Below, one piece after another: positions 1,094 through 1,815 of a DNA stretch of 3,798 nucleotides. The DNA is from Escherichia coli (lineage in GTDB: Bacteria > Pseudomonadota > Gammaproteobacteria > Enterobacterales > Enterobacteriaceae), in assembly GCF_003334255.1 (NCBI RefSeq), contig NZ_QOWU01000115.1; one strand, 5' to 3'. Under the pieces are notes generated by a model, which was given only the letters and a program-made list of their open reading frames with translations, did no database searches and was not told the DNA's origin. The position numbers and the translations under genes were made by a program. Each line of letters opens with the position of its first letter. Positions within the stretch are counted from its first letter, which is position 1.

Positions 1094-1687
1094 ATGATAA
1101 TAGCGATCAGTGCGGTTAAGGATCCGGTATATACCAGGCAGGGATGTATCAACTGTCTGGTGAAACTCACCGGAGTTGACGAGGAGGAGACGGACTGGCT
1201 TCCGTTTACGGCGACACCAACGGACGAAGCCCCTCATGGAAAAGAACTCTGGCAGGCACTGAACTCAGGTCAATATGGTCAAATCGCGCCGTATACTCAA
1301 CCGGAAGATGCGGTGGAAAAAGCCAGACAACAGAAAATTAATGAGATCAACGCCTGGCGTAATGCGATGGAAGCGGCGAACTACACGTTTGAGCACAATG
1401 GGCGTAAATGGGACTACGGGAAGTCAACGCAGACGCGTCTTGAGCCGTCGGTGGCGGCAGCGAAAGCGGGGAAACTGCCGGAGCAGTTTTTCTGGACGGA
1501 TGCGGACAATAATGACGTACCGATGGACGCTGAAACACTGATTGCTCTGAGTGCTGCTGCAGAGCAGGCGATGTTTACCAAAGGTCTGGAAATTCATGTC
1601 AGACAGCGCACGATGAAAAAAGAGATTGAAGCGCTGGGTGATGCGGAAGCTATACTGGCGTATAAGGTCGGCATGGCTGACAGGTGA
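1094..1687 (+). CDS. Tail-fibre-associated protein, probable tail fibre assembly/chaperone-type accessory protein (197 aa); function tentative
   Basis: Complete ORF from ATG 1094 to TGA 1685-1687. GAGG at 1084-1087 sits 6 nt upstream of the ATG, and the start is only 11 nt after the tail-fibre stop, suggesting translational coupling. GC about 50%, typical enterobacterial. Position directly after a tail-fibre gene is where phage assembly/chaperone genes sit. I do not see the classic lambda Tfa / P2 gpG C-terminal signature, so the family is uncertain. Confidence 0.7.
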   Translation: MIIAISAVKDPVYTRQGCINCLVKLTGVDEEETDWLPFTATPTDEAPHGKELWQALNSGQYGQIAPYTQPEDAVEKARQQKINEINAWRNAMEAANYTFEHNGRKWDYGKSTQTRLEPSVAAAKAGKLPEQFFWTDADNNDVPMDAETLIALSAAAEQAMFTKGLEIHVRQRTMKKEIEALGDAEAILAYKVGMADR

Positions 1688-1712
1688 AAAAAAGAGGGGC
1701 GCTCCAGCCCCT
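1687..1712 (-). terminator. Intrinsic-terminator-like hairpin, minus-strand orientation (stem AGGGGC/GCCCCT, loop 6 nt, then U7 on the minus strand)
   Basis: + strand reads A7 (1687-1693), g, aggggc (1695-1700), gctcca, gcccct (1707-1712). On the minus strand this is a GC-rich 6-bp hairpin followed by cTTTTTTT. On the + strand it is followed by tgctacaaag, so there is no U tract for ORF 1094-1687. Confidence 0.45.
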
Positions 1713-1815
1713 TGCTACAAAGCTATGGCTAAATAAAGAATACTCAGGTCGAGGAAATAATCTGGCAATGATAATTAAAGGAGATGCAACGGCCTCCTTC
1801 ACCCCTGTCAAAGAT

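Follow-up and report, generated by a model that had tools for sequence, protein, structure and literature searches.

A prophage tail-fibre operon of Escherichia coli raises the question of which strand is served by a GC-rich hairpin that abuts the stop codon of what looks like its last gene, and of whether rightward transcription ends there. The window, the whole stretch of 3,798 nucleotides analyzed here, is 99% identical over its full length to a prophage of E. coli strain G1/2; the spacer shows 94% identity to that of prophage P-EibA of ECOR-9. On the plus strand the window carries the 3' part, up to 1082, of a collagen-repeat tail-fibre gene, a tail-fibre-assembly-like gene of 197 amino acids taken from the ORF list (1094–1687, stop TGA at 1685–1687), a non-coding spacer of 807 nt (1688–2494), an eib-like gene for a YadA-C-terminal trimeric autotransporter/adhesin of 356 amino acids (2495–3565), which is the next plus-strand gene, and the start only of an orf156 homologue beyond it. 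The ORF at 1094–1687 matches the PHROG family phrog_1141 (tail fibre; E = 8e-81) and is annotated in RefSeq as a DUF4376 protein. The tail-fibre gene before it has long collagen-like Gly-X-Y repeats (window 1–780), and since positions 1–600 are matched by G1/2-type prophages only, this part appears to be a rarer allele than the eib module.

The run of seven A residues at 1687–1693 starts with the A of the TGA codon and is followed by G1694. Together, according to the sequence, the pattern scan and the list of A-runs, they represent the CUUUUUUU tract of a minus-strand terminator (1687–1694), which shares the last base of the DUF4376 stop codon. The hairpin itself, which we call T1 (minus strand, 1695–1712; located by scan, folding and comparison), consists of the stem AGGGGC (1695–1700)/GCCCCT (1707–1712) and the loop GCTCCA (1701–1706). 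It therefore has 6 bp, five of them G-C, and a loop of 6 nt, within the range of a GC stem as we defined it (at least 5 bp, with a loop of 3–8 nt). Directly past the stem on the plus strand lies UGCUACAAAG, with TGCT at 1713–1716, and the order of A7, hairpin and ttgct immediately behind the ORF that the first-pass annotation described is borne out by the sequence.

The only call of the pattern scan at T1 is on the minus strand, where it reads AGGGGCTGGAGCGCCCCT and then CTTTTTTTCA, and in that direction the stem is succeeded by C and then U7 (1694–1687), a proper U tract. On the plus strand the tail, GCUACAAA or UGCUACAA, has one T in 8 bases and no U tract, so that of the two tracts of a bidirectional terminator T1 has the A7 tract but not the U tract. 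The hairpin energies are similar on both strands (−10.9 kcal/mol for the minus strand and −11.8 to −13.1 kcal/mol for the plus strand), and the strand asymmetry thus resides entirely in the tract. A d'Aubenton-Carafa-type score gave about −6 for the minus strand, which is borderline, and −32 to −48 for the plus strand; the same score was +18 for a clear terminator-like hairpin further into the spacer (T3, see below) and +33 for the terminator behind the eib-like gene. The scan, the single T and the contrast in scores all agree with the earlier proposal that the hairpin faces the minus strand. As judged from its sequence, T1 is a moderate terminator on the minus strand and is predicted not to be a terminator on the plus strand.

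The folding energy of T1 is unremarkable when compared with shuffled sequences (z = −0.6 on the minus strand and −1.8 on the plus strand), and the plus strand of the window is A-rich, with 20 A-runs of at least five residues compared with 8 T-runs, a composition that biases pattern scans toward minus-strand matches. The scan returned 9 matches in the window, all on the minus strand, with 4.2 expected over both strands. The spacer contains three A-runs of at least six residues (starting at 1687/8, 1816 and 1985), and each lies directly before a GC hairpin. Given the non-significant energies and the A-rich bias, the case for T1 as a real element rests on related loci.

We gathered loci that encode relatives of the ORF, drawing on viral contigs, phage records and E. 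coli genomes, and read the sequence behind the stop codon in each. Counting a flank only when the minus strand has at least 6 T in the 8 bases after the hairpin, we found an A-tract followed by a GC hairpin 5–15 nt past the stop in 17 of 21 distinct 3' flanks (44 of 52 loci). The stems belong to five unrelated types, AGGGGC/GCCCCT, ATGGGGGA/TCCCCCAT, GGGGAGC/GCTCCCC, GGGGGTGA/TCACCCCC and GGGAAA/TTTCCC, and the loops vary by allele: the allele shared by KY176, L009 and L010 keeps the stem of the window with a changed loop and tract context, the loop being AAGCYATA in KY176 and L009 and GCTCCA in the window. Formal covariation is limited, because the stems are all G-runs paired with C-runs and most pairs are invariant G-C. 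On the plus-strand side, at least five T residues occur in two flank types only. The reversed hairpin goes with the end of the DUF4376 gene and not with the eib spacer: it adjoins eib spacers of unrelated sequence, it occurs with a virion gene just 80 nt away in L039, and it lies near the prophage-host junction in L005 (host fieF about 760 nt downstream) and L142 (ykgJ, then host potB). In the remaining four flank types the element is missing or is replaced by a bidirectional or plus-strand version. Distant homologues of the gene (for example, in phiP27 and L129–131) have no hairpin, a plus-strand terminator or a bidirectional-looking hairpin, the last in L099, L127, L023 and L035, which indicates that the reversed hairpin is a trait of the E. 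coli clade of the gene and not of all DUF4376 genes. In lambda and phiP27, taken as comparators, the last tail-fibre gene is likewise followed by a hairpin, but one that has neither A nor T tracts, and we set both phages aside as close models. On these comparisons, the conserved link between a reversed terminator-like hairpin and the DUF4376 gene end is a small new descriptive point.

Some relatives also contain a gene that such a terminator could serve. In strain ST130 (L142), L029, L031 and L043, what comes after the DUF4376 gene is a convergent member of the YkgJ family (CxxCxxCC motif, Pfam PF03692), at 3678–4007 in L142 and 3037–3366 in L029, pointing toward the tail-fibre-assembly-like gene. 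The YkgJ-family gene occupies the right end of prophages integrated beside potB, and in ST130 it is located between the tail gene and host potB. Its stop lies 130 nt from the reversed hairpin in L142, which is the only strong minus-strand terminator past the gene. In L005, L026 and L053 only the last codons of the YkgJ-family gene are left (...RARAKYGLPEI*), within a unit that occurs once or twice in tandem and always has a reversed terminator at its leftward end (remnants at 3262 and 3533 in L005, 3088 and 3360 in L026, and 3082 and 3354 in L053). From their arrangement, these tandem remnants resemble cargo in decay or scars left behind by recurrent recombination. The first unit of L005 has a T1-like stem, AAAAAAGAGGGGC..CAGCCCCT, with 82% identity over 28 nt.

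In the window, a tblastn search found no coding remnant of ykgJ, and a sensitive blastn comparison with the ykgJ 3'-UTR units matched short terminator segments and nothing else. Beyond the hairpin, the similarity of the T1-proximal spacer to these units is weak (z = 1–4), and the best local alignment scores of the T1 unit were reached by 2–8 of 500 shuffles. Homology of the T1 unit to the ykgJ 3'-UTR units beyond the hairpin is thus suggestive at the level of sequence. Neither a minus-strand client gene nor a convincing nearby promoter feeding T1 was found in the window. Since no convergent YkgJ-family gene survives here, we infer that T1 is probably an orphaned or boundary leftward terminator. 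With no ykgJ remnant and weak similarity in the window, the history of orphaning hangs on a chain of comparison that runs through L005.

The absence of a plus-strand terminator at the ORF end, which the first-pass annotation had noted, holds: the first plus-strand intrinsic terminator beyond the tail-fibre genes lies at 3591–3625, after the eib-like gene. It has a stem of 9–11 bp, a loop of 9 nt and a U8 tract, the only T-run of at least six residues in the window, and folds with −29.7 kcal/mol (z = −4.2); its 9-nt loop, above the limit of 8 nt, kept it out of the pattern scan. An equivalent stem-loop is annotated after eibA in AF151091. With no plus-strand intrinsic terminator after the ORF and no plus-strand U tract at T1, rightward transcription is expected to enter the spacer, as was proposed earlier. 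The accompanying view that the operon ends at 1687 did not stand. Downstream on the same strand, the G1/2 prophage and PhiR5_2 both carry the eib-like gene, orf156, orf60 and homologues of phrog_511 (internal virion protein) and phrog_496 (tail fibre gene), and PhiR5_2 is a complete, viable phage that grows on MG1655 and has a lambdoid layout with N and a Q-like antiterminator. The lack of a plus-strand terminator after the DUF4376 gene is therefore expected rather than odd, because the operon continues downstream. In lambdoid late transcription, Q-modified polymerase reads through terminators. The 3591–3625 terminator lies upstream of virion genes in a short-tailed, 933W-type context, and the presence of so strong a plus-strand terminator before virion genes implies antitermination. 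The gene that follows the eib cassette in L001 (12489–14114) matches only positions 319–859 of the 862-position phrog_511 profile, and from this match it may be either an N-terminally shorter form or a gene truncated by module insertion.

Rho-dependent termination, offered earlier as an alternative to read-through, is not favored. In a test for Rho loading by composition only, the plus-strand spacer has a C/G ratio of 0.37–1.09 (78-nt windows, 1688–2485) and no C-rich, G-poor stretch of the rut type; because it is not C-rich, nothing points to a dedicated Rho site. The same figures bear on a role for T1 as a stabilizer of the plus-strand mRNA, in which the hairpin would protect the transcript against exonucleases after processing or Rho termination and the A tract would be incidental. 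A stable hairpin directly past a stop codon and 807 nt of untranslated RNA behind it are what such a role might look like. A stabilizer has no need, however, of the gene-side A tract that is kept across five unrelated stem families; the far side of the hairpin is rarely T-rich (at least five T in the two flank types mentioned); the plus-strand spacer never exceeds a C/G ratio of 1.09; and in relatives the element sits downstream of a convergent gene. We regard stabilization as highly improbable.

Another reading is that T1 acts in both directions, through pausing and head-on collisions or as a weak non-canonical terminator that uses the UU after the stem. The plus-strand hairpin is slightly more stable, reaching −13.1 kcal/mol as a 7-bp stem that includes a G-U pair, E. 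coli RNA polymerase has been shown to terminate in both directions, driven by collisions, at hairpins that separate convergent units (bioRxiv 10.1101/2022.10.23.513370), and the distant homologues named above have bidirectional-looking versions. Set against these points are the plus strand itself, with no U tract and scores far below those of clear terminators, the virion genes that a viable phage needs downstream on the same strand, and the resistance to terminators of Q-modified polymerase in a phage type in which a Q-like gene is present. Collision, moreover, is possible only with active leftward transcription. Two-way action therefore appears very unlikely.

The reading we prefer, and hold to be likely from the comparisons, is that 1687–1712 is a leftward Rho-independent terminator that forms a conserved right boundary of the DUF4376 gene, is orphaned in this prophage and is passed through by late transcription. 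By standard terminator behavior, an RNA polymerase moving leftward, wherever in this prophage it may have started, would transcribe AGGGGC-UGGAGC-GCCCCU and then C-U7 and would be released at about 1686–1690, which is the stop codon of the ORF. With release at that point, the tail-fibre genes would stay free of antisense RNA. In related prophages, it is the convergent YkgJ-family gene, together with any transcription reading in from host potAB, that this element would end; in the window, T1 is the third and final one in a leftward series of terminator-like hairpins within the 807-nt spacer. In the rightward direction, with no U tract, polymerase would not stop at T1, and Q-antiterminated late transcription would go on past the spacer, the eib-like gene and the terminator behind it and reach the downstream virion genes. 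Known mechanisms are unchallenged by this account, in which T1 would be an ordinary unidirectional leftward terminator.

The other two hairpins face the same way. T2 (minus strand, 1816–1841; scan and fold) has a terminator-like hairpin at 1824–1841 and a T6 tract at 1816–1821 and is conserved in all eib-type spacers aligned. T3 (minus strand, 1984–2012; scan) has a terminator-like hairpin at 1991–2012, also with a T6 tract, and sits in a segment of about 115 nt (window 1911–2027) that is also found in PhiR5_2 and L009 and is missing from P-EibA, KY176 and 2013C-3033; in L009 the T3 hairpin is degenerate. An exact 16-nt direct repeat, ATACAGAATTTTCGTA, occurs at 1915–1930, inside the T3 segment by its left edge, and at 2092–2107, about 65 nt beyond its right edge; the sequence suggests a duplication or insertion event behind the segment. 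Between T2 and T1, the non-coding interval at 1713–1815 (minus strand, by folding) contains a further hairpin at 1776–1801.

Three leftward signals of a hairpin with U6–7 within 330 nt allow the reading that a small regulatory RNA gene lies in the T2–T1 interval, with T1 as its terminator and Hfq-binding 3' end, and belongs to an array of leftward small RNAs that end at T1, T2 and T3. The hairpin at 1776–1801 pairs better as minus-strand RNA, where it has two G-U pairs, and is kept in a diverged allele with a change of G-U to G-C. Convergent small RNAs are, moreover, known beside late-operon morons in lambdoid O157 prophages (PMC4104026). The T1 unit folds no better than shuffles, however (z = −0.55), RNAalifold on four T1-unit sequences misaligned the terminator loop and gave no useful covariation, the one compensatory pair in the four sequences being all there is, and T3 is absent or degenerate in other eib loci. 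No Rfam family matched the window at E ≤ 1, AgvB and AsxR (RF02702/RF02703) included, and permissive Rfam scans of the window and two related spacers returned nothing relevant. We consider a small RNA gene ending at T1 unlikely.

The promoter scan is in keeping with this. It found no sigma-70-like promoter between T2 and T1 (1713–1823), and a perfect TTGACA at 1811–1806 has no usable −10 hexamer at a spacing of 16–18 nt in either allele. The only sigma-70-like minus-strand site in the spacer is a candidate at 2230–2202, TAGTCA-17-AATAAT, by consensus match only, and the total of promoter-like matches in the window is not above shuffle expectation. Just downstream of this promoter-like site is an inverted repeat, ATCAGATTGTGCT..AGCACAATTTGAT (window 2164–2203). 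Convergent minus-strand or small-RNA transcription in the spacer is thus unproven. The Pas small RNAs were rejected as a model, being located in the Q/lysis region, unlike the T1 site, and so were AgvB and AsxR, which are located at the pR' moron site and have no Rfam match in the window. None of the small spacer ORFs is a convincing peptide or toxin gene. Hypothetical-protein ORFs of PhiR5_1 and PhiR5_2 that correspond to window 1684–1851 (plus strand) and 1874–2023 (minus strand) cross terminator hairpins, and the GTG start of the former is lost in the KY176 allele; from the sequence, the two are probably not genes.

Four known arrangements help to place the element. T1 resembles the unidirectional intrinsic terminators of convergent junctions in its GC stem, short loop and U7 tract just beyond a stop codon, and the T1-type element likewise ends a convergent YkgJ-family gene in related prophages, but in the window the client gene is missing and T1 stands between the co-directional DUF4376 and eib-like genes. 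It also shares with bidirectional intrinsic terminators an A tract followed by a GC hairpin, and L099 and L127 among the distant homologues have the bidirectional version, but the plus-strand side of T1 is without a U tract. Morons of lambdoid phages are additional genes inserted in the late region that bring along a promoter and a terminator (Juhala et al., 2000, as cited in PMC4104026). The eib cassette is moron-like in having its own upstream control region and a strong plus-strand terminator and in lying within the late gene cluster, whether the phage is of the siphovirus type (lambda-like, long-tailed) or of the short-tailed 933W type. T1, however, is not part of a moron promoter/terminator pair, as it has the opposite orientation and travels with the preceding tail gene.

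The fourth arrangement is the pR' moron site of O157 prophages, where AsxR and AgvB are encoded as convergent anti-sRNAs (Tree et al., 2014, PMC4104026). T1 is like these RNAs in that its 3' end signal is directed against the late operon and directly adjoins a late-strand stop codon at a moron insertion site; it differs in having no match to RF02702/RF02703, in its position at the tail-fibre end and not in the Q/stx region, and in that no promoter was found for it. It is doubtful that T3, T2 and T1 are the ends of an array of two or three small-RNA genes that read leftward in the 807-nt spacer. If they were, the tail-fibre moron site would give lambdoid prophages a second nursery of small RNAs, comparable with the one of AsxR and AgvB behind pR'; T1 would then supply the Hfq-binding 3' end, either for the last RNA or for read-through products, and the RNAs would act on eib or on host targets.

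As a leftward terminator at a gene boundary, T1 bears on annotation and on module exchange. The DUF4376 gene should not be taken as the late-operon end in this prophage type, and because the cassette lies inside the late gene cluster, eib is expected to be co-transcribed on induction, besides being expressed from its own promoter. We read the reversed hairpin as the marker of a conserved boundary between modules: tail-fibre modules, eib cassettes, ykgJ-type cargo and the prophage end are swapped there. A leftward terminator at such a boundary would shield the tail genes from antisense transcription of cargo or host operons (potAB in relatives).

The region in front of the eib-like gene has conserved features of its own. 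In the eib literature covered, nothing concerns the spacer beyond the 168 bp upstream of eibG that were used for expression (bioRxiv 10.64898/2025.12.25.695649). An inverted repeat at window 2354–2391, GAAATTCCGAA..TTCGGAATTTC, is annotated as a stem_loop in AF151091. Over about 170 nt before the eib start, blocks are kept across otherwise unrelated spacers, among them a palindrome, TTTGTATACA(G/A)ATAA, and CATCAGATTTTCTTTA (window 2459–2476 and 2419–2441). The same blocks occur upstream of eib-type genes in L018, L023, L027, L035 and L049, and from this conservation they are candidate promoter or operator elements.
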